Shown here: positions 15,391-46,505 of the stretch, piece after piece
Position numbering within the stretch: position 1 is the stretch's first letter
Layout of the letters: every line of letters starts with the position of its first letter
From: an uncultured Candidatus Saccharibacteria bacterium
GTDB lineage: Bacteria > Patescibacteriota > Minisyncoccia > Phycocordibacterales > UBA6899
Direction: 5' to 3'
DNA: 64,000 bases
Assembly (NCBI GenBank): GCA_964515375.1
Contig: CAZERF010000005.1
Coordinates: 22,482-86,481, forward strand
Made by a program: the position numbers and the translations under genes
The notes under the pieces: generated by a model
The model's database searches: none
The model's input: only the letters and a program-made list of their open reading frames with translations
Told to the model about the DNA's origin: nothing

Positions 15391-16236
15391 TTAGACCGAA
15401 GGGAATTGCCGAATAAGACGCAAGTCGCCGGTGTAGAGCATGCGCACATCGGGGATCCCGTATTTGAGCGCAACGAAACGATCGACCCCTCCACCGAATG
15501 CAAATCCCTGCCATTCGTCCGGATCGATCCCACCCGCGCGCAACACCTCGGGATGCACCATTCCCGCACCCATGACCTCGATCCACTTCTCTACTTTTCC
15601 TTTTGCGTCAGTCCAACCAATATCGATCTCAACCGACGGCTCCGTGAATGGGAAATAGCTGGGGCGAAAACGTACCTCCATCTTCCGACCGAACACCTGC
15701 TCAAAGAATGACGAGAGGATACCCTTGAGGTCCGAGAGTGCGACTCTTCGTCCGATCATGAGACCTTCGAATTGATAGAATTGCGTTTCGTGCGTCGCGT
15801 CGGTCGCTTCGTAACGATACACCTTCCCCGGAGCAATGATGCGGATCGGTGGTTCATGCTTCTCCATATGGCGGATCTGTACAGGGGAAGTATGGGTACG
15901 CAAAAGAAGTCGCTCCAGATTGTTCCTCCCCTTCCCGTCCGCCTTCTCCTCTGTAGGGCGGAGCCAAAACGTGTCCCACATATCACGCGCTGGGTGATCC
16001 TTCGGTATATTGAGTGCGTCAAAGTTGTAATGCTCTGTCTCCACCTCCGGTCCATCCGCAACCGAAAACCCCATTCCCCCAAAGATCGTCACGATGTCAC
16101 GCATCATGACCGTGACCGGATGTAGGTTCCCCCGTTCGGGGGGGATCCCGGGGACAGTCACGTCGATACCAAGTTTGGTGCTCATATTCATTCCGCCATT
16201 ATAGGCAAAAAGACCAAAAAGACCAAGCATTGCCAT
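15391..16236 (-). CDS. pheS: Phenylalanyl-tRNA synthetase alpha subunit (short, 281 aa)
   Basis: FDALNIPKDHPARDMWDTFW, FRPSYFPFTEPSVEID, GFAFGGGVDR class II motifs. Confidence 0.9.
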   Translation of the reverse strand: MAMLGLFGLFAYNGGMNMSTKLGIDVTVPGIPPERGNLHPVTVMMRDIVTIFGGMGFSVADGPEVETEHYNFDALNIPKDHPARDMWDTFWLRPTEEKADGKGRNNLERLLLRTHTSPVQIRHMEKHEPPIRIIAPGKVYRYEATDATHETQFYQFEGLMIGRRVALSDLKGILSSFFEQVFGRKMEVRFRPSYFPFTEPSVEIDIGWTDAKGKVEKWIEVMGAGMVHPEVLRAGGIDPDEWQGFAFGGGVDRFVALKYGIPDVRMLYTGDLRLIRQFPSV

Positions 16237-16277
16237 ACTTGGTCTTTTCTTCTACTAAACCGAAGAAAATAATTCTT

Positions 16278-19200
16278 CTAGCGTTCGATGTACTGGACGC
16301 TGGGAGGCACCCCGATGCCAGAAATGTCAAAATTTGCAAAAGAGAGTCCTGAGAGCGAGACTACTCCGCCAAACTTTCCCACCGCAGTTGGGGCAAAACG
16401 AATCACGATCGTTGTGTTCCCTTTTGAATCAAGGTGATAAGGGCATTTCCCATTAACAAGTGGCCCGGCAGAAGAAAAAATACATCTAAACATTCCACTT
16501 GCACTGTCGACGTCAAACAATCCAAATCCAAAATCAGCTGTTCCTGTATTTTGAATGGTCATTGATTGGTCGCGATATCTATTTACAACAGTTGCAGGGA
16601 ATGTTTGCCCAGAACCTAATATTGTGATGATCGACGTGAACAAACCCTCACCGTTCAGATTCATTTCAAGGGGTCCATTTATCGTATTTACTCCGGAAAA
16701 GCGAACTGTTCCGGGAAGCGACCCCGTATCCATCGGTAAGAACCGAAGCAATACATCTTTATAATTATCCTGAGAAACCGTAAACGCACACCCTGTTGCC
16801 GCCGGTTGACATGAATACGTATCACCACCATTGGAAAAGGTAACTCCGATCGACATATTACCAACTCCCACATTCCACAAACGAACATACTTCTCTTTCT
16901 CTGAAGCAAGATTTGAAGAGCCAAAATCAAGAAAATTATAAACTTCAGTATAACTATTCGGATCATCAACGCTCGTTGGCGTCAACTTCATGATCGGTGA
17001 ATTAATACCAACACCACTGATCGAACGTGATACAGAGTTATCCTCCCCATCAAATGTAATTGATGTATTAATAGGACCCGTTGCTGAAGGATAAAACGCG
17101 AAAGTAAATGAAGTGGTTGCGCCAGGCGCAAGAGAAACGACAAAACACGGAGAAGGATCGATGCACCTAAATACGGAAGTGTTCATGTATGCATCAAGAA
17201 ATACGTATGTCGCGCGGAGACCAACATTTTTGACCTCAAAAGATTTTTCAGGTGCATCACCACCCACCCTCGTCTCGGAAAAAATATGAGTAACGGGAGT
17301 GACCTCAATATACGACGAAGCGATTGAATCCCCTTCAACGTCGTAGCGTGTTGTCTTTGTCGCATAATCTCCAAAGTGATATTGGATAGTGATTTCACCA
17401 TCAAAACCACTGGCATAATTTGGTTCAAAAGCAATTTTTGCAATACGTTCTGTGTAAGTATCATTTAGAATGAACGGTCCGCAATTCTCGAAACATCTGA
17501 ATGTACTTGTTGAAGAAGTAACTTGATACCACACAGAAGTCCCCGAACTTCCTGAGCGTGCAACCCTTAATCTCAAAGACTTATTTTGAACAGGAGTATT
17601 GTAGTAAGTTGTTCCGTAATCGATAGTTCCCGAATAGACACCCGGAGTAGGAAGAGAGTACCACCCTTCATCCTCATCCTCCGCCGATATACTTACTCCT
17701 GGATTGATGCCAGTACCTTGAAACGTAACTGATGTTCCCACAATGGTGAATGACCCCGTGTGTAGACCCAGAGAGGTGGGTTTAAACGTGAATTGTGTTG
17801 TTGTTGATTGCCCTCCCCCCAGTTCAAAAGAACAGTTCTGAGCGCAAGAAAAGGCACTCGGCGTCCCAAAACTCGCGGCTGAAAGGGAGACAGTAGTTGT
17901 TCCAACTCCAATATTTCTTATCGCGTAGGATGTTGTTGCGGTTGTATTCAGTAAAACATTACCAAAATTGATCCTCGTACCTCCTGCCGCAACAAGCAAT
18001 GGTAGATCATTACCATTGGCACTTAAACTGATGCTAACTGACGGAAGTCCAGTTGGAAACTCGTTAGTCAGAGAAGCAACCGTTGATGTTGCGCCGGCGA
18101 CAAGTGGTGAAAAATGTATTGTCCCTACGAACCTATATCCCTGCGAGGGGGTCACAGAGGCGTAATGATGACCAATACCCGACACGGAGGCTGGCTCAAA
18201 CGAGAAGCCATTGCTTGGGAGACCGAGCATCCTCCCCGAAAGATCACTCAGGGAGGCTCCGCTATTTTTCACATAAACACTGATCGAAGATGTTGCGCCC
18301 ATATTCACAATACCTGCGTCCCATGAATTCCAACAAGTGTTTGACTGATAAAGACAGACCGTGAGAACAGGGATGTCCGAAACACTCGAACGCAATTCCG
18401 TTGTTGTTCCTCTACCAACCAGTGCTGTCAAAGTTGCACGATCAACGCGCGCAGGATTCGCAGATAATGGGATAAAATAAATATAAATAGCCTTTTCTTG
18501 ACCACCCAAGAGGGAGTAACGACAACCAGATATCCCACCCTGACACGAATATTCCCCTTCACCTGGAAGCACAATAGCCCCTTCAAGGAGTCCACCACCG
18601 GAGTTTTTTACCGTCAGTATCTCTGGTCCAAAATATGGGGGGTTACCCAAATAGCCAAAGCCAAAATCTACAGGACCCGAAGGAGTGATCGTTGCCTCTG
18701 GTAACACATCTTCTCCAACCGCTCTTAGTTGTATTCGCCTTGAAACAGTAGGATTGTCACATGCATAAGGAATGTTTGCAGTACAATTAAATATCACTTC
18801 CTGGTCCCATTCACCCTCTTCCACGGGGGCGATTTTTATTGTTACAGGAACATCAGTTTGCCCGGGAGCAAGCGTATCCGCACAACCAGCAGTACAATAA
18901 AACGGTGCCGAGAGCGTCGAGATATTATAATTAAGAGACCTCAAACCAGTATTGCTTACATAAAAAGTTTTTGTCTGGACATCGCCAGTAAGAATATTAT
19001 CAAAAATAGAATCTCCGGAAGGACTCACAATAAAGCGCGGGTTGTTGGGACGATCAACAGTATACTCACGACTAAGATAGAGTTGAGCCGAATAAAAATT
19101 CTTTTCTGTGGTTGCGCAAGTCTCAGAATCAGCATAAGTAGGAGGGAGGCCCCTTTTTTCTGCGGCAAGATTGATTTGATGCTTCACAGAACAGATCTCT

Positions 19201-19640
19201 CCGCCCCAAAATTCAATTTTCATCACGTGATCCCCGTCGGCCTGCCGTCCGATATTGTACGAAAAGGTACCGACAATAGCATTGTTCGGATCAGTATTTT
19301 CGGGAAGCTCAATATGACAACCCGCAGGGGCAGGACGTTGCATGCAATCAGCATCAGAATGTTCCTTATTAGGAACCTCAAAACCATCCTGCTTCACATA
19401 AATATTTCCCACCCACAACGGAGGTAGCATAAACTCTCCCGTCACAATAACATCATCCTCAAACCTGTAATCTTGCTCTCTCGCAGGAGTGATCCATTTT
19501 GTAATAATATCTCCTTCTGCAGCAACAGCATAAGAGGGAGAAATAAGACAGAGCAGTAAAACAAAAAAGAGGAGTGAAAAGAACCTCTTACGCAATTTCC
19601 TTAGTGGCAACATAATATTCTGAGAATTAAATAAGATCAC
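16278..19640 (-). CDS. Large secreted surface protein (1120 aa) with repeated beta-sandwich-like domains bearing paired cysteines
   Basis: Signal peptide; Ser/Thr/Gly/Asn-rich. Repeats of pattern F/Y-x-C-x(2-6)-C-x-F...L.PG...F.P...G...G (for example FSCAQNCSFELGGGQ, FRCFENCGPFILND, FRCIDPSPCFVVSLAPG, YSCQPAATGCAFTVS, FRCIFSSAGPLVNGKCPYHL). Clearly lower GC than flanking genes. Confidence 0.7.
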   Translation of the reverse strand: MILFNSQNIMLPLRKLRKRFFSLLFFVLLLCLISPSYAVAAEGDIITKWITPAREQDYRFEDDVIVTGEFMLPPLWVGNIYVKQDGFEVPNKEHSDADCMQRPAPAGCHIELPENTDPNNAIVGTFSYNIGRQADGDHVMKIEFWGGEICSVKHQINLAAEKRGLPPTYADSETCATTEKNFYSAQLYLSREYTVDRPNNPRFIVSPSGDSIFDNILTGDVQTKTFYVSNTGLRSLNYNISTLSAPFYCTAGCADTLAPGQTDVPVTIKIAPVEEGEWDQEVIFNCTANIPYACDNPTVSRRIQLRAVGEDVLPEATITPSGPVDFGFGYLGNPPYFGPEILTVKNSGGGLLEGAIVLPGEGEYSCQGGISGCRYSLLGGQEKAIYIYFIPLSANPARVDRATLTALVGRGTTTELRSSVSDIPVLTVCLYQSNTCWNSWDAGIVNMGATSSISVYVKNSGASLSDLSGRMLGLPSNGFSFEPASVSGIGHHYASVTPSQGYRFVGTIHFSPLVAGATSTVASLTNEFPTGLPSVSISLSANGNDLPLLVAAGGTRINFGNVLLNTTATTSYAIRNIGVGTTTVSLSAASFGTPSAFSCAQNCSFELGGGQSTTTQFTFKPTSLGLHTGSFTIVGTSVTFQGTGINPGVSISAEDEDEGWYSLPTPGVYSGTIDYGTTYYNTPVQNKSLRLRVARSGSSGTSVWYQVTSSTSTFRCFENCGPFILNDTYTERIAKIAFEPNYASGFDGEITIQYHFGDYATKTTRYDVEGDSIASSYIEVTPVTHIFSETRVGGDAPEKSFEVKNVGLRATYVFLDAYMNTSVFRCIDPSPCFVVSLAPGATTSFTFAFYPSATGPINTSITFDGEDNSVSRSISGVGINSPIMKLTPTSVDDPNSYTEVYNFLDFGSSNLASEKEKYVRLWNVGVGNMSIGVTFSNGGDTYSCQPAATGCAFTVSQDNYKDVLLRFLPMDTGSLPGTVRFSGVNTINGPLEMNLNGEGLFTSIITILGSGQTFPATVVNRYRDQSMTIQNTGTADFGFGLFDVDSASGMFRCIFSSAGPLVNGKCPYHLDSKGNTTIVIRFAPTAVGKFGGVVSLSGLSFANFDISGIGVPPSVQYIER

Positions 19641-20071
19641 TCCGAAACAACAGGCTTCCCGTCCTTAAAGGGAACCTTTCCGGTAACGACAACAGACTGA
19701 GACGAGGAGGAGAAATAGTCAAATCGTGAAAGATTTGAATCAAGCTCCAACATGCGTTGATCAAACACCTTTGCATTCTCTTCCGCTTGCTCAGGTGAAG
19801 GAGGAAGTGAACCAAAATCCTCTTCTGTTTCAGGTTGAGGCAAAAGGGGAAAAGGAAACTTTCTATTTCCCTGAAAATATACAAGCGTCATAACCGACAA
19901 AAGAACTAAAAAGGAGAACAGAAGGACATACTTGCAAACGCGACATTCCTTCATTTCGCCGATCTCGGAGTGCACATCCTGGGGTTCACTTACTCCCTCA
20001 CTAATGTTGTCTTTCATAGATTTTCTCATTATATCTCTGGGACCACACTTGAAGCAATGTTGTCTATCCAC
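19637..20071 (-). CDS. Small membrane protein with N-terminal Zn-ribbon-like CxxC...CxxC and one TM helix
   Basis: MDRQHCFKCG...ECRVCKYVLLFSFLVLLSVMTLVYF. Stop overlaps the start of the downstream giant gene (ATGA). Confidence 0.45.
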   Translation of the reverse strand: MDRQHCFKCGPRDIMRKSMKDNISEGVSEPQDVHSEIGEMKECRVCKYVLLFSFLVLLSVMTLVYFQGNRKFPFPLLPQPETEEDFGSLPPSPEQAEENAKVFDQRMLELDSNLSRFDYFSSSSQSVVVTGKVPFKDGKPVVSE

Positions 20072-20123
20072 AAAATGGCGAATGCGTCACGAATGAGCAG
20101 GTAGGGGGATCTTGTATCTCAGA

Positions 20124-20133
20124 ATTATAAGCA
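20124..20133 (-). promoter_or_regulatory. Extended -10 promoter TGcTTATAAT for the Zn-ribbon/giant-protein operon
   Basis: Minus strand: ttttttgTGCTTATAATtc. Nearly identical to the element at 38265-38273. Confidence 0.45.
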
Positions 20134-20182
20134 CAAAAAAGTAGTATCAGAAAGGCGGCAAACCCGAGGTTGGCCCGGTATC

Positions 20183-20300
20183 CATTTGAGTGTGCTCGTT
20201 CTGTGGAGCCGGCAGTCAGGCTTGAACTGACGACCTACGGTTTACAAAACCGTTGCTCTACCAACTGAGCTATGCCGGCATTACGCGAGCACACTCAAAT
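20183..20300. repeat. Perfect 16-bp inverted repeat (catttgagtgtgctcg / cgagcacactcaaatg) bracketing tRNA-Thr
   Basis: Arms at 20183-20198 and 20285-20300. The spacer contains the complete tRNA. Confidence 0.8.
20204..20280 (-). tRNA. tRNA-Thr (anticodon UGU), CCA encoded
   Basis: GCCGGCAUAGCUCAGUUGGUAGAGCAACGGUUUUGUAAACCGUAGGUCGUCAGUUCAAGCCUGACUGCCGGCUCCA folds as a cloverleaf: 7-bp acceptor stem, GCUC/GAGC D-stem, ACGGU/ACCGU anticodon stem, loop UUUGUAA, T-arm GUCAG-UUCAAGC-CUGAC. Confidence 0.9.
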
Positions 20301-20310
20301 GAATCCAACC

Positions 20311-20348
20311 TTACAAAACCGTTGCTCTACCAACTGAGCCATGCCGGC
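20311..20348 (-). pseudogene. Truncated copy of the tRNA-Thr 5' half (38 nt, 1 mismatch)
   Basis: GCCGGCAUGGCUCAGUUGGUAGAGCAACGGUUUUGUAA then diverges. No anticodon-stem 3' strand or T-arm. Confidence 0.55.
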
Positions 20349-20506
20349 ATTTATGAACCCATGACAAAATATCCAATCTCTCAAAAAAAACAACTACTCT
20401 GCAAATGCCCCGACTAACTTACAAGAGCATACCAAATAGTTCAAACCTTGCAACAAGACCACTCCGTAATACCGGAAATAAGCACAGTTGCAAAATAACT
20501 TGTTGC

Positions 20507-20896
20507 TCAGACCCCTCCGTCAGTGCGTCCTCGCGAGCGCATGCGGCGACGCAACAATTCCTGATGTTCGGCGATATGCTTCAAAAAGAAAGAGGATGCG
20601 CTGCGGCGATCAATGGTGATCCTTCCGAACACATGAGCAGAGAGACGTTCGCGCATCACACGGAAGACATGAAGAACCCTCTGTACCGGGGGGCGCAGCG
20701 CGAGAAACATCCGCGCGACAATGTAAAGCAAGCGGTGGCCCAGATCATACATCTCTCCCGAAAAAAATTCGGTAAAACTTTGCGGGATCGCAGACGTATT
20801 TCCGCGCAACGTGCGACGACGCAAAAGGACTCCGAGCGCAAGCGAGAGCGCAAGAACACCAAATGATATGATCCAACTGAGCGAAAGTGCTGACAT
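20507..20896 (-). CDS. Hypothetical small membrane protein downstream of tsf
   Basis: 129-aa ORF with an N-terminal TM segment. Only its operon position supports it. Confidence 0.25.
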   Translation of the reverse strand: MSALSLSWIISFGVLALSLALGVLLRRRTLRGNTSAIPQSFTEFFSGEMYDLGHRLLYIVARMFLALRPPVQRVLHVFRVMRERLSAHVFGRITIDRRSASSFFLKHIAEHQELLRRRMRSRGRTDGGV

Positions 20897-20956
20897 GTCG
20901 TCGTTATCTATTATAGCAGCTCAGGCGTCGAAGTTCGAGCGCGTGAGAAGCTTGAA

Positions 20957-21556
20957 CTACTTACCCACCGCGAAGCGCGCAAAACGAATGATCTCGGTAT
21001 TCTCTCCAAACTTCTGCACCGCACGCTTCACTAGATCGCCCACGGTAATATCCGGATCCTTCACGAAAGGTTGTTCAAGCAACACCGATTCCGCAAAATA
21101 CGCGGCGATCTTTCCTTCAAGTGCCTTCTTCTTGATCTCCTCGGGCTTTCCCGCCATGGTCTTCTCTACTTCCTCTTCAAAGAAGGAAGCAGCCTTTGCG
21201 CGATCTTCTTCCGTGATGTCATTCTGCGTACGATACTTGGGATTAAGCGCAACAACATGCATCGCGATCTCATAGGCAAGATGCTTGAATTCCTCGTTCT
21301 TTGCCACAAAATCAGTCTCACACGCAAGCTCCACGATAGCACCGACGGAGTTGTTGCCGTGAATATAGGACGCGACGACTCCCGAGCCAAGAGCACGGTC
21401 ACCCTTCTTTGCGGCGATCTCTCCGCTCTTCTTGCGCAACATCATGCGAGCCTTCTCCATGTCGCCTCCCGCCTCTTCGAGAGCCTTCTTGCATTGCATG
21501 ACCGAAACACCGGTCTCGTCACGAAGCTCCTTGATCGCATCCATGCTGATTTCCAT
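20957..21556 (-). CDS. tsf: Elongation factor Ts
   Basis: MEISMDAIKELRDETGVSVMQCKKALEEAGGDMEKA UBA-like N-terminus. Short (about 200 aa) form. Confidence 0.9.
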   Translation of the reverse strand: MEISMDAIKELRDETGVSVMQCKKALEEAGGDMEKARMMLRKKSGEIAAKKGDRALGSGVVASYIHGNNSVGAIVELACETDFVAKNEEFKHLAYEIAMHVVALNPKYRTQNDITEEDRAKAASFFEEEVEKTMAGKPEEIKKKALEGKIAAYFAESVLLEQPFVKDPDITVGDLVKRAVQKFGENTEIIRFARFAVGK

Positions 21557-39629: not shown

Positions 39630-40650
39630 TTATATTTGCTTTCTTGCCTTAATAATTATTCTTGAAAATGGGCACTTTGTCTGACCATTCACAGTCACAG
39701 AAATATCTGTTCGTCCACGATAATTCTTCTCCACACCCAAAGTTTTACCTAAATCTCCAAAAGGTATACCAACAAGTTCAAATTGTTTCGGGTTGTATTT
39801 ATCAAGAAAGGTATCTGGAACACCCATAGCACCCTTGTAGTCAATCGGAATATCTGACACTCTTCCAACTTCAATAGCATCGTAGTTGTCATACTTAGGA
39901 TAGTCATCAGGAGAGTATCTTTTGTAAAGAATTAATTCCTCGTGCCTCTTTGGAGTATCAAGATTGGTGAACCAACTTGTATTCCCCATCGGCATATATT
40001 TTTGTCCTTCAATAACAACAATACTTTTGCTCTCATAATTATCTGGTACAAGGTATTTTTTTGGACCATTATTTATACCCAAGCCACAACTTATTATCTT
40101 GAATCAACGGAAAAATTTCCTTGTAGTGTATGGCGTTATTTGTGCCAATAATCAGAAATTTCTTTTTATGCTCAAATAGCTGTGCAAGATACTCACGAAA
40201 GAGAGAGAACGGAGGATTCGTCACAACAATATCAGCCTCCTTCAGGATCGCAACACACTCATCGCTACGAAAATCACCATTTTGCTTGAGAGGTGTTTTA
40301 ATAACATCGTCGTCATTGATCTTGCCGTTCTCATCCATATCACCGGTCAATTCGAGTTTATACGTGGGCTTTTCGTAATCAAAATGCGTTGTAACTAATT
40401 TCTTGATACCGAGATAAGAAAAATTAAGCGCAAAATAACGCCAAAAGTTGCTTTCGAGAGGATCGTCACAATTACAGAAGATCACCTTCCCTTTCAAGTG
40501 GTGCTTGTAGTGACTCACTTCTTTTTCAATATCGGCGAGTTGTGTGTAAAACTCGTCCTTTTTTGCCTGACTTGCCTTGTGGAGATTCTTGTTTGACGCT
40601 TTCGTTTCCATATCTTCGCAGTGCTCACAAGTGATGATTATGAGTATCAC
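39630..40650 (-). pseudogene. EcoRI-methylase-family N6-adenine DNA methyltransferase, interrupted by a +1 frameshift near 40070-40082
   Basis: N-terminal ORF (40069-40650) has DEFYTQ, CNCDDP, DIVVTNPPFSLFREY, HYKEIFPLIQDNKLWLGYK*. The C-terminal continuation is in another frame (39630-40082). Deleting one nt in 'tataaataatgg' restores about 340 aa. Confidence 0.65.
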
Positions 40651-40687
40651 TTATTGGCAATCTACCACAAAAAATATGATACTCATA
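40638..40687. promoter_or_regulatory. 11-bp perfect inverted repeat (tatgagtatca ... tgatactcata) in the divergent MTase/XRE intergenic region; candidate operator
   Basis: Arms at 40638-40648 and 40677-40687. Confidence 0.4.
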
Positions 40688-40727
40688 GTCCGTCGACTTA
40701 TAAGCATCATCGCCCTACGCTGAAGGG

Positions 40728-41004: not shown

Positions 41005-41526
41005 TCACTTGCCGGTGATTCTCCCAACCAGAAGCAAGTCCGAGTACGAACCCGAGATCGAAGGAAATTGTTCGAGTAAAAGCAGATCTTTCACTTTATT
41101 GTGCTCCGCCATATATTGCGTATCATCCCCCTCTTCCCGCATTACGGTTTCAAGCTCAATAAATGTCCCGAGTTTTGCTACGGTGTCAAGATGTATTCTT
41201 GTATTTTTAAAAAGATAGAGATCGCGTCGTTTTTCCACAACAATTTTAACGCCATAGCTTATATCAAGGAGGAATTTAAGGATAGGAACGAAAAATTGGT
41301 AGACTTTTAACATTCGATACGAGGATTCTCTTGTTCCGTTTTTGTTCACCCTGGAATAAAAAATGATTTCCGATCGCCCTCCTTCTTCCCGAATTTTCAG
41401 TCGTTTTGCACCAAGAAGATAGTAGGTATCCTTTTGTTCAAGGACGCCTTGGAATACCGCAAAACCAAGACGGCCCCGCAAAGAAGAGAGTGCGTCGACG
41501 CGTACCTTGATTTCAAGATTTCTCAT
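41005..41526 (-). CDS. CYTH-domain protein (class IV adenylyl cyclase / triphosphate tunnel metalloenzyme family)
   Basis: MRNLEIKVRV N-terminal strand; RLKIREEGG; C-terminal DTVAKLGTFIELE. Overlaps the upstream radical SAM gene by 14 nt. Confidence 0.7.
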   Translation of the reverse strand: MRNLEIKVRVDALSSLRGRLGFAVFQGVLEQKDTYYLLGAKRLKIREEGGRSEIIFYSRVNKNGTRESSYRMLKVYQFFVPILKFLLDISYGVKIVVEKRRDLYLFKNTRIHLDTVAKLGTFIELETVMREEGDDTQYMAEHNKVKDLLLLEQFPSISGSYSDLLLVGRITGK

Positions 41527-42355
41527 GCTTGCTCTTATTTCTTAAAAATTCAATCGCATCTGCTGCTCCCTCAAAAAACTCCCTCCCGCTATTTTGTACG
41601 AGAGAAGAAAGAAATTCCATTTGACCATCTCTCTTGACCATTTGAAAAGAATTTCCAGGAAGCATCCATTGAGGCTGCAGCTCAGATTCTATTTTTGAAA
41701 CATAGTCTGGGAGAAGAATCCTCACCTTGTCTTCCTTCAGGTAAAGAGGTCCTGAGTAGTAGCCAAAACAATAATCCTTTGTTTTATTAATAATATCTTC
41801 TAATTCATGATCAGAAACATCAGGAAGTAACGGGCGTATCGCGGTAGTAGTCGGAATTCCCCTCTGAAAAACAGAGGAGAGGGTTTCGATTCTTTTTTCA
41901 GGGTGAGGCACCCTTGGTTCATATTTTTCTAATAGAGACTCATCTAGACAAGGTAGAGATATGGAAAATGAAAAAATATTTCCATTTTCCTGCATTCTCA
42001 CATTAATCTCTCCTAATGCATCCACAAAACCCTCGGGCAGTGACAACTTTGTAATAACCGAGATATCTCTTCCGTATGTGCTTAATATTTCAAGAATCCT
42101 TAAGGACTCTTGCTTGTTCTGAAAGAACTCAGTATCACAACCAAGCATGATGAGGCGGATATGCTCCGGAAGATTTTGAAGCAACTCAAATTGTTGCTCA
42201 TTGAGATAGGCAACTTTTCGAGATTGCTCCTGAGACATCTCCTCAGCAAAACAATAAGTGCACTCGAGAGGACAACTGAGTTTTGAATACGTTAAAACCC
42301 TTTCTTTGTCCAATTTAAGACCTTGACTCTCAAATGACTCAATCGGATTCTCCAT
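41513..42355 (-). CDS. Radical SAM enzyme, spore-photoproduct-lyase-like (COG1533-type) family
   Basis: CPLECTYCF = CX3CX2C cluster motif 27 aa from the N-terminus. Own TATAAT and AAGGTGA start context at 42360-42395. Confidence 0.7.
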   Translation of the reverse strand: MENPIESFESQGLKLDKERVLTYSKLSCPLECTYCFAEEMSQEQSRKVAYLNEQQFELLQNLPEHIRLIMLGCDTEFFQNKQESLRILEILSTYGRDISVITKLSLPEGFVDALGEINVRMQENGNIFSFSISLPCLDESLLEKYEPRVPHPEKRIETLSSVFQRGIPTTTAIRPLLPDVSDHELEDIINKTKDYCFGYYSGPLYLKEDKVRILLPDYVSKIESELQPQWMLPGNSFQMVKRDGQMEFLSSLVQNSGREFFEGAADAIEFLRNKSKHEKS

Positions 42356-42411
42356 GTGTTCACCTTAATTCGTCTGGATTATACAAGTAGGGCACCTCTA
42401 ACAAATTCATA

Positions 42412-43571: not shown

Positions 43572-46505
43572 TCACACCAAAAGATCACTCTTTTGCACAC
43601 CGCCGGAAAGAGTTCGCGGCTCGGTGCGCAATACCTCTTTATAAGTTCCGTCCAACTGTTTCGCCTCAACGGTAATGAAATACTCGCCGGGAGGAACAAG
43701 GAAGTAAAAGCGTCCGAACTCGTCAGCGACCGTCTTTTTCATGATCGTATTCAACCCGGGAAGCCACACCTTCACAAGAGCAAACGGAACGGGCTTGCCA
43801 GTCGCCTTGTCCTTCACGAAGGTGATCTTGTGTGTCACCTTCCACGCAAGTTGGAAGATGAGAATCGCAAGATAGATGCCAACAACAACCATATTCAAGA
43901 CTGAAGGCGTGACCAACAAAGATCCGAGCGAGAAGAGCAATCCGACATAAAAGAGAATATTGAAGATCCACAGACGAACATTCTTGCGACGCGAATAAAC
44001 CTTGAAGACTTGATCTTGATTCTTGGCAAACTCGTTCCAGTCAAACTCTACCGGATCAAGCGGAATATTGTATTGCACCACACCCCCCTCTCGGACATGG
44101 AACGGGTCACCGAAATACAAATTCTCGTAAAACTCATCACGCGCCTTCCCTTTTAATTTGTCGGAGGGGAATTTGTAGTGTGTCTTGTTGGCCTCAATGA
44201 TATATTCGCCGGGATTCAAGAAAAATCCATATCGCCCGTCGAGGTCGGTGATCGCTTCTCCCTTTGACTGTGCTCCATCGCGGATCCGAGCAAGCACGTA
44301 TGCGGGGTCAAGTGGTCGTTTCGTTACCGAGTCATACACGACACCCCACGGCTCATTCTTCTTGCGTCGAAAGATACCGGTCAAAAGTCCGAGGAATTTG
44401 AGGAGGAGGAGATAAAGGTCATAGGCCGACGCGACGTTGGTCGAAAGAAGAATGACCTGAGAGGCACCGACCGCAACGCCGACCGGCGTCGCGACAGGGG
44501 CGACAGTATTGACGGGGTTTTCGATGGTCTCGGTAACCTGCGTCACCACTTGGGCGACGGAAGGAGGGAGGATCTCGGTAAATCTGATCTCGCGGAAGAC
44601 GTCAAAGAAACCCTGGAGTTGTGTAACATTGCCACGCTCCGTATCCAAGACGCGGATCACAAAGGCGCGACTTCCCGCATCTCCGAGCCCGGGAAGGATC
44701 GCATCATAGGCGGTGCGTTCGACGTTGAGTGAAAGTAAAAATGACTGAGTCCCCTTCGCGCCGGAATTTACTGAAAGTGCGATGGTCACAATGCGCGCGG
44801 GGAGCTTTTCGACCGGAATCGAGACGAGGAGCGCGCGTTCTCCGTTCACGCGCACGACACCGTTGCGAGAAAAAAGACGTTTACGCACTTCTCCGATCTC
44901 GAAGAAATTCACATCAGAAAGCGTCAAAGAGGACACTTTCACATCAGGGGTTCCGGTCCCAACAAAGCCAATGAAGGGGTCAGTCGATGTGGGGAGTACG
45001 GGTGGCGGTATCGTAGGTGATGATGTTGACGTAGATCCGGGGATCGTTGTTGTCCCTATTCCACCTCCTCCCGGCGGAGGAGTCTCTCCACCGGGAGGAG
45101 GTGGGGGTGGTGGAGGAGGTGGTGGCGGAGGGGGTGGGGGTGGTGGCGGAGGGGGTGGTGGGTCGATCACCCCCGTCTCGGTCACACCGGAATAGATCGC
45201 GCCCGAAGAGTAATTACCCGAGGTGTCACGCGCGAACGCAGTGTAATAATACCGCGTTCCCGTCGCAAGTCCCACATCGACGACCGATGTCGCGCCTCCG
45301 TCATAAACAAGAACACCATCAAAAGGATCCACAGGATAACCGGTCGTGCCACGCACGACACGCACCGTCGCAAAATCGGAATCAAGCGGATTCACCCACG
45401 AGAGCGCGATTGAATTTAAACTTGGTGTTCCTGAAAAACTTGCAGGGTTTGCAGGCGGGGTCGTATCAGGCGGAGGCGGAGGCGTGAGTGTTCCAAACGA
45501 ACCGGTCACGGGAGCGCTCACATTCCCGGAAAAATCACTTGCGGTAAGACGGTAATAGTACAGAGTTCCCGTCGCAAGCCCACCGATACCCATCGCATGT
45601 GTTGCCCCGTAAGCGATCTCGTTCGCGATCCCGAGTCCATACACCGTTGATGTCCCCCACTCGATCGTTGCGAGTGCCGGCTCATTCGTCAAAAAACTCA
45701 CCGTTGCTGATGTGTACGTCGTACTCGCCAAAACTCCGGAGATAACAGGGGGCGTCGCGTCGATCGTTGCAAAGACCCACGAAGAGTTTCCCGCGATGCC
45801 ACCAAAGTTGTTGCCCGCCTGATCGGCAAATGTCCCTCCGTCTACAGTGACATAATACGTCGTCGCGCTTACCAAAGGAGATGGCAGTGTGATCGTCACA
45901 ATGTTGCCCGACACGCTCACTCCCGACTCCGCGACCGGGATCGTCGCGACAAGTGTATCATCGGAAAGACGGCGAACAACAACATTCCCCGACACCTTAT
46001 TCACAAGTTCGGACATAGCGATAGAGAGCGTCGTATTGAGCACCACTCCAGTTGCACCGTTGGCGGGAGAAAGGGACGAAACAGTCGGAGGATTGGTGTC
46101 GCCTCCGCCACCCCCCGAAGGCGGATCGGTCGTTGCAGAATCACCCGCCGAAGGAACGGAATAATTAAAAGAAGTATCGAAGGCGCGGATCACATATGCA
46201 TAGGTGGTATCACCCGTGAGTCCGGAATCTTGATACGAGATCGCTGTTGTCGTCGCGATCGAAATGCCGTCACGATAAACAACGTAGCCGGAAACCGAAA
46301 CATTATCGGTCGACGACGCCCACACAAGGTTGATCTGCGAAGACGACACAGCGGTCGCGGAGAGGCCGGAAGGAGCGGACGGGGGGACAACATCAGAAAG
46401 CACTGAAAGGCCGATATTGAACTGCTGAGCGGCGACAACAGACCCCGATCCAAAAAAGAACGAGAGCAAGAGGAGTATCGAAAATATACGCGTCAATATC
46501 TTCAT
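43572..46505 (-). CDS. Large surface protein: signal peptide, FN3-like repeats, 25-residue poly-proline tract, C-terminal TM segments and carboxypeptidase-regulatory-like domains
   Basis: Several FN3-type motifs (INLVWASSTDNVSVSGYVVYRDG, TTYAYVIRAFD); P25; GVVYDSVTKRPL...DGRYGF and FALVKVWLPG...GRFYFLVPPGEYFITVEA. Confidence 0.65.
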   Translation of the reverse strand: MKILTRIFSILLLLSFFFGSGSVVAAQQFNIGLSVLSDVVPPSAPSGLSATAVSSSQINLVWASSTDNVSVSGYVVYRDGISIATTTAISYQDSGLTGDTTYAYVIRAFDTSFNYSVPSAGDSATTDPPSGGGGGDTNPPTVSSLSPANGATGVVLNTTLSIAMSELVNKVSGNVVVRRLSDDTLVATIPVAESGVSVSGNIVTITLPSPLVSATTYYVTVDGGTFADQAGNNFGGIAGNSSWVFATIDATPPVISGVLASTTYTSATVSFLTNEPALATIEWGTSTVYGLGIANEIAYGATHAMGIGGLATGTLYYYRLTASDFSGNVSAPVTGSFGTLTPPPPPDTTPPANPASFSGTPSLNSIALSWVNPLDSDFATVRVVRGTTGYPVDPFDGVLVYDGGATSVVDVGLATGTRYYYTAFARDTSGNYSSGAIYSGVTETGVIDPPPPPPPPPPPPPPPPPPPPPPPGGETPPPGGGGIGTTTIPGSTSTSSPTIPPPVLPTSTDPFIGFVGTGTPDVKVSSLTLSDVNFFEIGEVRKRLFSRNGVVRVNGERALLVSIPVEKLPARIVTIALSVNSGAKGTQSFLLSLNVERTAYDAILPGLGDAGSRAFVIRVLDTERGNVTQLQGFFDVFREIRFTEILPPSVAQVVTQVTETIENPVNTVAPVATPVGVAVGASQVILLSTNVASAYDLYLLLLKFLGLLTGIFRRKKNEPWGVVYDSVTKRPLDPAYVLARIRDGAQSKGEAITDLDGRYGFFLNPGEYIIEANKTHYKFPSDKLKGKARDEFYENLYFGDPFHVREGGVVQYNIPLDPVEFDWNEFAKNQDQVFKVYSRRKNVRLWIFNILFYVGLLFSLGSLLVTPSVLNMVVVGIYLAILIFQLAWKVTHKITFVKDKATGKPVPFALVKVWLPGLNTIMKKTVADEFGRFYFLVPPGEYFITVEAKQLDGTYKEVLRTEPRTLSGGVQKSDLLV
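45080..45160. repeat. CCN/GGN microsatellite encoding P25
   Basis: Plus strand (ggn) about 27 repeats. Potential slippage-prone tract inside a surface-protein gene. Confidence 0.7.

Follow-up and report, generated by a model that had tools for sequence, protein, structure and literature searches.

The radical SAM (rSAM) enzyme spore photoproduct lyase (SPL) is a DNA-repair enzyme, and the prokaryotic viperins (pVips), which form a different rSAM branch, are often encoded together with a nucleotide kinase. We know of no report in which SPL or PA0069 is paired with a CYTH protein. Within the CYTH/triphosphate tunnel metalloenzyme (TTM) superfamily, SaTTM works as a stand-alone enzyme, with inorganic PPPi as its preferred substrate (PMC8233210). 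The same source separates the classes of this superfamily by their motifs: true class IV adenylate cyclases carry HFxxxxExExK, an Ala where ExE would have its second Glu and a small residue at the centre of xRxR; thiamine triphosphatases (ThTPases) carry W/YxRxR; and hydrolytic TTMs retain ExE and DxY (PMC8233210). A described system composed of an rSAM and a CYTH protein was found in none of PADLOC, NCBIfam, Pfam, and the searchable literature, which bears out the original prediction that no system of an SPL-like rSAM enzyme with a CYTH protein was known; in the eLife 2020 paper on conflict systems, rSAM appears in a different context. The locus described here encodes such a pair. Both domains come from well-known superfamilies, and no characterised family includes either protein.

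The window, that is, the whole stretch of DNA that was analysed, comprised 64,000 nucleotides of an uncultured Candidatus Saccharibacteria bacterium (assembly GCA_964515375.1, contig CAZERF010000005.1, positions 22,482 to 86,481 of the forward strand). Its relevant features are as follows.

41513 to 42355, minus strand: rSAM gene, an open reading frame of 280 amino acids from a small family without a name, a relative of the COG1533/SPL branch
41005 to 41526, minus strand: CYTH/TTM gene, an open reading frame of 173 amino acids with a hydrolase-type motif set
41513 to 41526, minus strand: overlap of 14 nt between the rSAM stop and the CYTH start, read from the sequence (predicted translational coupling)
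42251 to 42274, minus strand: codons of the CX3CX2C motif for the [4Fe-4S]/SAM cluster, C28-P-L-E-C32-T-Y-C35, read from the translation
41506 to 41520, minus strand: codons of N3-L-E5-I-K7, which departs from the ExExK hallmark of CYTH proteins by an Asn at the first Glu
41149 to 41157, minus strand: codons of E124-L-E126, the metal-binding ExE motif, in which neither glutamate is lost (role from PMC8233210)
42360 to 42383, minus strand: putative -10 box TATAAT (42378-42383) and Shine-Dalgarno sequence AAGGTGA (42360-42366) before the rSAM start codon
38544 to 40943: type II restriction-modification (R-M) cassette called by PADLOC, with a C-protein, an EcoRI-like methyltransferase (MTase) in two open reading frames and a DUF262-HNH restriction endonuclease (REase)

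Both open reading frames and their 14-nt overlap were present where the original prediction had placed them. The overlap reads ATGAGAAATCTTGA; CYTH begins there, 14 nt before the rSAM gene ends. Inspection of the sequence showed a spacing of 4 nt between AAGGTGA and the rSAM ATG. Of the promoter and ribosome-binding block that had been claimed for the pair, the TATAAT and AAGGTGA letters were indeed present, whereas a consensus scan upstream of the rSAM gene called no full sigma-70 promoter, the -35 hexamer being absent; judged from these elements, a separate promoter for the pair is plausible. The lower GC content ascribed to this segment was also real, but the estimate of about 45-48% was too high, because GC content was 40.6% in the pair and 41.3% in the R-M genes, whereas the remainder of the window had 52.3%. 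The low-GC segment as a whole (approximately 38.2-42.4 kb) had a GC content of 41%, compared with 52% elsewhere in the window, and neither flanking direct repeats nor a tRNA was found at its edges.

The 280-aa protein passed the gathering cut-off of the Pfam Radical_SAM model (PF04055; 48.9 bits against 29.5) and contained the expected cluster motif CPLECTYCF with C28, C32, and C35, so that its assignment as an rSAM protein stood. Together with Y34 and F36, these three cysteines were invariant among 28 members of the rSAM family. In a fold test, the protein shared the partial TIM-barrel of solved rSAM enzymes, and SPL ranked as the best match with generic rSAM cores close behind. The COG1533-type models of NCBIfam gave only partial matches, all far under their cut-offs; PA0069 scored 67 bits against 360 and covered only residues 65-194, and Rv2578c scored 34 bits against 430. 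When PDB sequences were searched with the rSAM family profile, SPL was not recovered, and chance matches only, without any rSAM enzyme, were obtained. The family was also acidic, with a median pI of 5.25 and a negative net charge in 24 of 28 members (range -18 to +6), which speaks against an rSAM protein that binds DNA directly, as far as pI, a proxy only, can indicate. The description of the enzyme as SPL-like is consequently true only in a weak sense: it holds for the top fold match, but the partial COG1533-type matches far below cut-off and the acidity of the protein stand against it. C73 is another invariant residue of the family, and by their spacing C73 and Y34 may be candidate equivalents of the hydrogen-donor Cys and the Tyr relay of SPL, respectively. 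The PADLOC pVip profile PDLC02903 matched residues 27-102, which form the cluster region, with 16.8 bits and an E-value of 9e-4; this match was attributed to generic rSAM similarity, and membership of the pVips was rejected.

The 173-aa partner exceeded the cut-off of the Pfam CYTH model (PF01928; 37.6 bits against 23.2), confirming its predicted domain, and showed the closed barrel of eight strands that defines the CYTH/TTM superfamily. Its first hallmark deviated from the canonical ExExK, reading N3-x-E5-x-K7 with the second Glu and the Lys retained, and N3, E5, and K7 were invariant among 38 CYTH family members as well as in all partners derived from the loci. E124-L-E126 was invariant in the family, and this motif, D33-T-Y35, and R42-L-K44-I-R46 can be described together as invariant or nearly so. 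E5 and E124 correspond to E7 and E135, the metal-1 ligands of SaTTM (PMC8233210). By inference from this correspondence, the change from Glu to Asn would leave metal site 1 intact and fall in the metal-2, water-activating site; hence the protein could be a poor hydrolase or a binding subunit only. Class IV adenylate cyclase was rejected as an identity, as the HF element was absent (the motif starts two residues from the N-terminus), ExE was intact, and the central residue was Lys; TIGR00318 scored 29.4 bits against a cut-off of 57.95. Thiamine triphosphatase was rejected as well, the aromatic residue of W/YxRxR being replaced by R42, and a signalling reading was ruled out by the motifs. Judging from the retention of DxY, RLKIR, and ExE and the absence of the HF motif, the protein is built like a hydrolytic TTM and not like a cyclase. 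The public label of class IV adenylate cyclase on its homologues is probably wrong, and correcting it would be a useful annotation fix, since these proteins carry the name without any cyclase signature.

Relatives of the CYTH protein outside the CPR were also inspected. The NxExK variant occurred in stand-alone proteins labelled Ktedonobacterales, Thermomicrobiales, and Bathyarchaeota, and relatives of this type were found fused to a cytidine deaminase of the homotetrameric type. One of these fusions lay in an operon with upp, a PNP/UDP phosphorylase, a pyrimidine-nucleoside phosphorylase, an adenosine deaminase, and Bmp. No rSAM neighbour was found for the four non-CPR relatives that were examined. 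The placement of that fusion in a salvage operon links the CYTH subfamily with free nucleosides and nucleotides.

One check proposed for the locus was whether the two genes recur side by side in other genomes, and they did so without exception: CYTH directly followed rSAM on the same strand in all 46 loci with downstream DNA. With distances measured from the conserved CYTH start, the junction fell between -35 and +10 nt in 41 of 42 non-redundant loci, 32 of which overlapped, and the lone exception had a disrupted rSAM open reading frame. There was no third conserved gene, the most frequent flanking family occurring in 6 loci; a flank cluster of 16 loci was discarded as an antisense open reading frame inside the rSAM gene. 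The two genes are an obligate pair. Such strict pairing, together with strongly constrained motifs, suggests that a defined chemistry awaits discovery. A search of 5.8 billion clustered proteins yielded 263 rSAM homologues at E <= 1e-3, those with names belonging to Patescibacteria lineages (Nomura-, Yanofsky-, Staskawicz-, and Falkowbacteria). The species-level genome collection contained 40 loci, mostly from CPR of the Paceibacteria type with a few bins labelled otherwise; nearly all members of the pair belonged to Patescibacteria bins, and viral contigs yielded none.

An exhaustive profile search with the rSAM protein returned 1819 proteins at E <= 1e-3, only 41 representatives (50% identity) of which were at E <= 1e-30. 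Beneath the CPR family lay a second tier of diverse full-length relatives with E-values from 1e-45 to 1e-17, and both share the skeleton CxxxCxYCF, xCDxE, SFATK, EPxxPSPxxR, IRPxLP, and GYxxGPxY; none of the second-tier proteins tested had an NCBIfam name. Fusions in this tier joined the rSAM domain to NUDIX in either order (rSAM-NUDIX and NUDIX-rSAM), to a GT4-conflict glycosyltransferase, or to a GFO/IDH/MocA oxidoreductase. Where the second-tier rSAM protein stood alone, a NUDIX gene began 2-5 nt downstream in all three contexts fetched by identity, and one such relative with NUDIX was located beside SIR2_2, a gene resembling nucleoside deoxyribosyltransferase, and a RES-Xre toxin-antitoxin pair. 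The rSAM-NUDIX fusion was present in 6 of 22 metagenome loci. All six, and a seventh locus with its rSAM gene cut at the contig end, had an overlapping upstream gene of 190-212 aa, and the copy that was scanned was a P-loop kinase-like protein (AAA_18/AAA_33 in Pfam). For these kinase + rSAM-NUDIX operons, too, neither the searchable literature nor PADLOC, NCBIfam, or Pfam gave a description. Another relative was encoded between a nucleotidyltransferase and a protein with a pyruvate-kinase barrel, and one adjoined a NERD gene. Within the CPR, a NUDIX gene abutted the CYTH stop at locus L038. Neither a NUDIX nor a CYTH neighbour was detected for several second-tier relatives (L066-L073 and L075). 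These genomic contexts suggest a recurrent theme, frequent but not universal, in which an rSAM protein of this clade is combined with an enzyme that cleaves nucleotide phosphoanhydrides, and CYTH would be the Patescibacteria version of the latter. The earlier idea that the pair modifies nucleotides thereby gained independent support from two sides, namely the NUDIX and kinase partners of the rSAM relatives and the cytidine deaminase fusions of the CYTH relatives.

The reading we favour, with confidence that is evenly balanced, is that the pair forms a translationally coupled two-enzyme module with a nucleotide substrate, most probably a free NTP or a closely related organic triphosphate. In such a module, the closed eight-strand tunnel of the CYTH protein would grip the triphosphate tail, and the acidic rSAM enzyme would generate a 5'-deoxyadenosyl radical that abstracts a hydrogen atom from the nucleoside, which would thereby be modified. 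The CYTH protein might then strip phosphate from the modified nucleotide or, alternatively, might ready the substrate first. Physiologically, the module may produce an antiviral or antimetabolite nucleotide, or it may serve in the salvage or clean-up of a damaged one. The data show the identities of the domains, the strict adjacency and coupling of the genes, the state of their motifs, the anomalous composition, and the repeated NUDIX, kinase, and deaminase partners of the relatives; the substrate class, the reaction order, the physical complex of the two proteins, and the biological role we infer. The GT4-conflict and GFO/IDH/MocA fusions would also fit a nucleotide-sugar or a macromolecule as the substrate.

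The charge of the two proteins bears both on the proposed complex and on an alternative substrate. The CYTH family is basic, with a median pI of 9.6 compared with 5.25 for the rSAM family, and an acidic rSAM protein with a basic CYTH protein is compatible with a physical complex. A strongly basic CYTH protein might also bind nucleic acid, for example a 5'-triphosphate end in the manner of the Cet1-type RNA triphosphatases, while an SPL-related rSAM enzyme reverses or adds a lesion or modification on DNA or RNA. The fold ranking is compatible with such repair or modification of nucleic acid, and the fact that SPL, a DNA-repair enzyme, is the best fold match counts against the free-nucleotide model. 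However, the rSAM protein itself is acidic and its relatives have small-molecule partners, and we regard a nucleic acid substrate as quite unlikely.

Next to its conserved arrangement, the pair showed a distinct composition. In 38 of 40 loci its AT content exceeded that of the flanks, the mean difference being 9.0 points. Third codon positions showed the effect most strongly, with a GC3 deficit of 13.2 points relative to the neighbours, seen in 38 of 41 loci (Wilcoxon 6e-11). The effect correlated only in part with host GC3 (r = 0.57), and the genomic position of the pair varied between loci. Low GC3, variable sites, and rarity point to repeated transfer rather than to a vertically inherited housekeeping operon; on this sequence evidence, the pair bears the signature of an accessory cassette spread by horizontal transfer among Patescibacteria. 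The same composition and positions could instead reflect gain and loss within lineages, if the pair served ordinary Patescibacteria metabolism, such as the salvage or biosynthesis of nucleosides or cofactors, and had no role in conflict. CPR bacteria rely on nucleotide salvage, a CYTH relative lies inside a salvage operon, the flanks consist mostly of housekeeping genes, and the upstream synteny is common to the closely related loci L004 and L006. An ordinary metabolic role nevertheless seems quite unlikely to us, because very few species-level genomes (40) have the pair, other pathway genes are not linked to it, and the GC3 deficit in nearly all hosts favours repeated transfer over a stable metabolic role.

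The neighbourhood of the pair in the window had been regarded as a classic defence-island context on account of a DUF262-HNH nuclease, an XRE regulator, and a decayed MTase. All three components were indeed present; they proved to be parts of a single type II R-M cassette with its C-protein. PADLOC matched the cassette with E-values of 2e-143 for REase_II and 2e-24 for Control_protein, and MTase_II matched the two MTase halves at 1e-71 and 2e-42. The enzyme with DUF262/GmrSD_N and HNH domains covered the type II REase model from end to end (2e-143). The MTase cannot be called decayed: in the same genome recovered from another sample, the EcoRI-type adenine methyltransferase was a single open reading frame of 326 aa, and one extra A near position 40074 of the window, causing a 1-nt frameshift, was the sole difference from this intact copy across approximately 1 kb. 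The R-M genes are one complete, self-contained type II system separate from the rSAM-CYTH pair, and the cassette was found in none of the other rSAM-CYTH loci examined.

To place the window among its counterparts, the two nearest genes on each side were scanned with PADLOC and Pfam in 42 non-redundant loci, giving 142 proteins. The commonest PADLOC family had 3 matches among them, although the small CPR genomes of roughly 1 Mb weaken this test in both directions. The Pfam census was led by housekeeping families (HATPase_c/GyrB, SecDF, PheS, Mur ligases, and ABC transporters). Cytidylate kinase was considered as a recurrent neighbour and set aside, since it occurred in three related loci only, in convergent orientation, and probably represents one synteny block. 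Apart from the 16.8-bit pVip match, no PADLOC model fitted either protein of the pair. As indicated by the neighbour scan and by the PADLOC scan of the pair, the defence-island argument does not appear to generalise beyond the window, whose island amounts to one R-M system that is missing from the other loci examined.

These data bear on a viperin-type anti-phage role, in which the rSAM enzyme would turn an NTP into an analogue that terminates chains or is toxic in some other way, and the CYTH protein would tune or activate the product or protect the host. Such a role would suit a pair that is accessory, patchy, compositionally foreign, and inserted at variable sites, and that adjoins an R-M system in the window. 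Its rSAM relatives, moreover, include GT4-conflict fusions, a NERD neighbour, and a neighbourhood with SIR2_2 and RES-Xre, and the layout of kinase, rSAM, and nucleotide hydrolase in the sister operons recalls the viperin with its nucleotide kinase. However, the PADLOC models do not fit (pVip included, at E 9e-4), the mostly housekeeping neighbours yield no PADLOC family beyond 3 of 142 in a test that genome size weakens both ways, the R-M cassette is missing from the other loci, a sensor or regulator gene is absent, and viral contigs lack the pair. Anti-phage defence is possible but, in our judgement, rather unlikely. A wider proposal is similarly tentative and rather unlikely: the rSAM-CYTH pair and the sister kinase + rSAM-NUDIX operons may together constitute an unrecognised branch of nucleotide-based immunity or antagonism, derived from SPL/COG1533 independently of the viperins, in which the rSAM enzyme would make a modified, possibly cytidine-derived, nucleotide that the tunnel enzyme or NUDIX would process into an active or a harmless form.

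Returning to the coupled nucleotide module that we favour, its consequences would extend beyond this locus. If the pair modifies nucleotides, it would represent a second, independently evolved lineage of nucleotide-modifying rSAM enzymes besides viperin, MoaA, and QueE, assign a function to a coupled CYTH enzyme for the first time, and show how ultra-small CPR bacteria that live on salvaged nucleotides manipulate their nucleotide pools. The sister kinase + rSAM-NUDIX operons widen the choice of experimental targets to organisms that are perhaps more tractable.

Compared with described systems, the rSAM protein shares 11-12% identity with SplB, PA0069, and Rv2578c and is approximately 60-70 residues shorter. 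Its family is acidic, unlike one suited to binding DNA, and its gene is always paired with a CYTH gene, an arrangement not known to us for SPL or PA0069. Viperin and the pVips belong to a different rSAM branch, and their partner is often a nucleotide kinase, whereas the partner here is a CYTH protein of the hydrolase type. The CYTH protein has full-length relatives in both sequence and fold in SaTTM (Saci_0718), PH1012, and PH1819, and like the small archaeal TTMs it conserves the eight-strand tunnel, DxY, ExE, and the basic tunnel residues. It differs from the SaTTM-type enzymes in that an invariant Asn takes the place of the first Glu in ExExK and in that its gene is obligately coupled to an rSAM gene. 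The rSAM + NUDIX operons and fusions, which form the nearest out-group to the rSAM family, resemble the present pair in having a nucleotide-phosphate hydrolase directly downstream of, or fused to, the rSAM protein, as CYTH is here; they differ from it in using NUDIX instead of CYTH and, in the fusion-type loci, in carrying an extra kinase-like gene.

In three related loci, the rSAM-CYTH gene pair is closely followed by a cytidylate kinase gene in convergent orientation:

L010:4254-4928, convergent, cytidylate kinase adjoining the rSAM-CYTH pair
L011:1923-2777, convergent, cytidylate kinase adjoining the rSAM-CYTH pair
L012:7933-8742, convergent, cytidylate kinase adjoining the rSAM-CYTH pair

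These three loci probably represent a single shared synteny block. The adjacency is nonetheless suggestive in view of the fusions with cytidine deaminase among the CYTH relatives. CYTH fused to a homotetrameric-type cytidine deaminase was found at locus L049:1941-2834 and in proteins P0180, P0185, P0187, P0212, and others, and the CYTH domains of these fusions carried the same NxExK variant as the pair. One fusion was located within a nucleoside-salvage operon that contained upp, PNP/UDP phosphorylase, pyrimidine-nucleoside phosphorylase, adenosine deaminase, and Bmp.

A few rSAM-CYTH loci (L032, L040, L041, L043, and L020) came from bins with labels outside Patescibacteria, namely Eggerthellaceae, Oscillospiraceae, Micrarchaeota, Elusimicrobia, or Gammaproteobacteria. 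They may be CPR contigs that were binned or labelled wrongly, or the pair may really have been transferred beyond Patescibacteria.

The methyltransferase of the restriction-modification cassette beside the pair was compared with its intact, otherwise identical counterpart in L053, which is the same genome from another sample. Two features of the window lie in this cassette:

39630-40650, EcoRI-like methyltransferase, frameshifted near 40074
40636-40649 and 40677-40690, inverted repeat with arms GATTATGAGTATCA / TGATACTCATAGTC, in the methyltransferase/C-protein divergent region

The methyltransferase was split only by a single extra A (TATAAATAA vs TATAATAA in the intact copy). With the adjoining restriction endonuclease apparently intact, the extra A reflects an error of assembly or else a mutation that arose very recently and is possibly lethal or phase-variable. 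The methyltransferase and C-protein starts diverge with 77 nt between them, and the inverted repeat inside this region could be the controller protein's C-box operator.

Elsewhere in the window, the minus strand at 43572-46505 encodes a 977-aa secreted or membrane protein with approximately 25 prolines in an unbroken run and Gly-rich tracts; Pfam Big_5 was present in its homologue at locus L052. A second low-GC stretch (16000-21000; 43.6-48.8% vs about 52-53%) surrounds the sole tRNA found in the window (tRNA-Thr, 20204-20279) and may likewise have been acquired as an island.

NUDIX genes were also observed at two individual loci. The gene row was rSAM-CYTH-NUDIX in one bin labelled Moranbacteria (L038:5986-7773), where only 2 nt separate the CYTH stop from the NUDIX start. 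At locus L080 (1-2645 and 5001-6453), the surroundings of a second-tier rSAM and NUDIX pair resemble a defence island: a few kb away are SIR2_2, a nucleoside 2-deoxyribosyltransferase-like gene, and a toxin-antitoxin pair of the RES-Xre type.

Finally, metagenome loci L057, L058, and L061-L065 share a conserved operon. Its first gene, which is P-loop kinase-like (AAA_18/AAA_33; 190-212 aa), overlaps the beginning of the second, an rSAM-NUDIX fusion (about 431-440 aa) with an rSAM portion distantly related to the rSAM in the window. This combination of kinase-like and rSAM-NUDIX genes is apparently undescribed.
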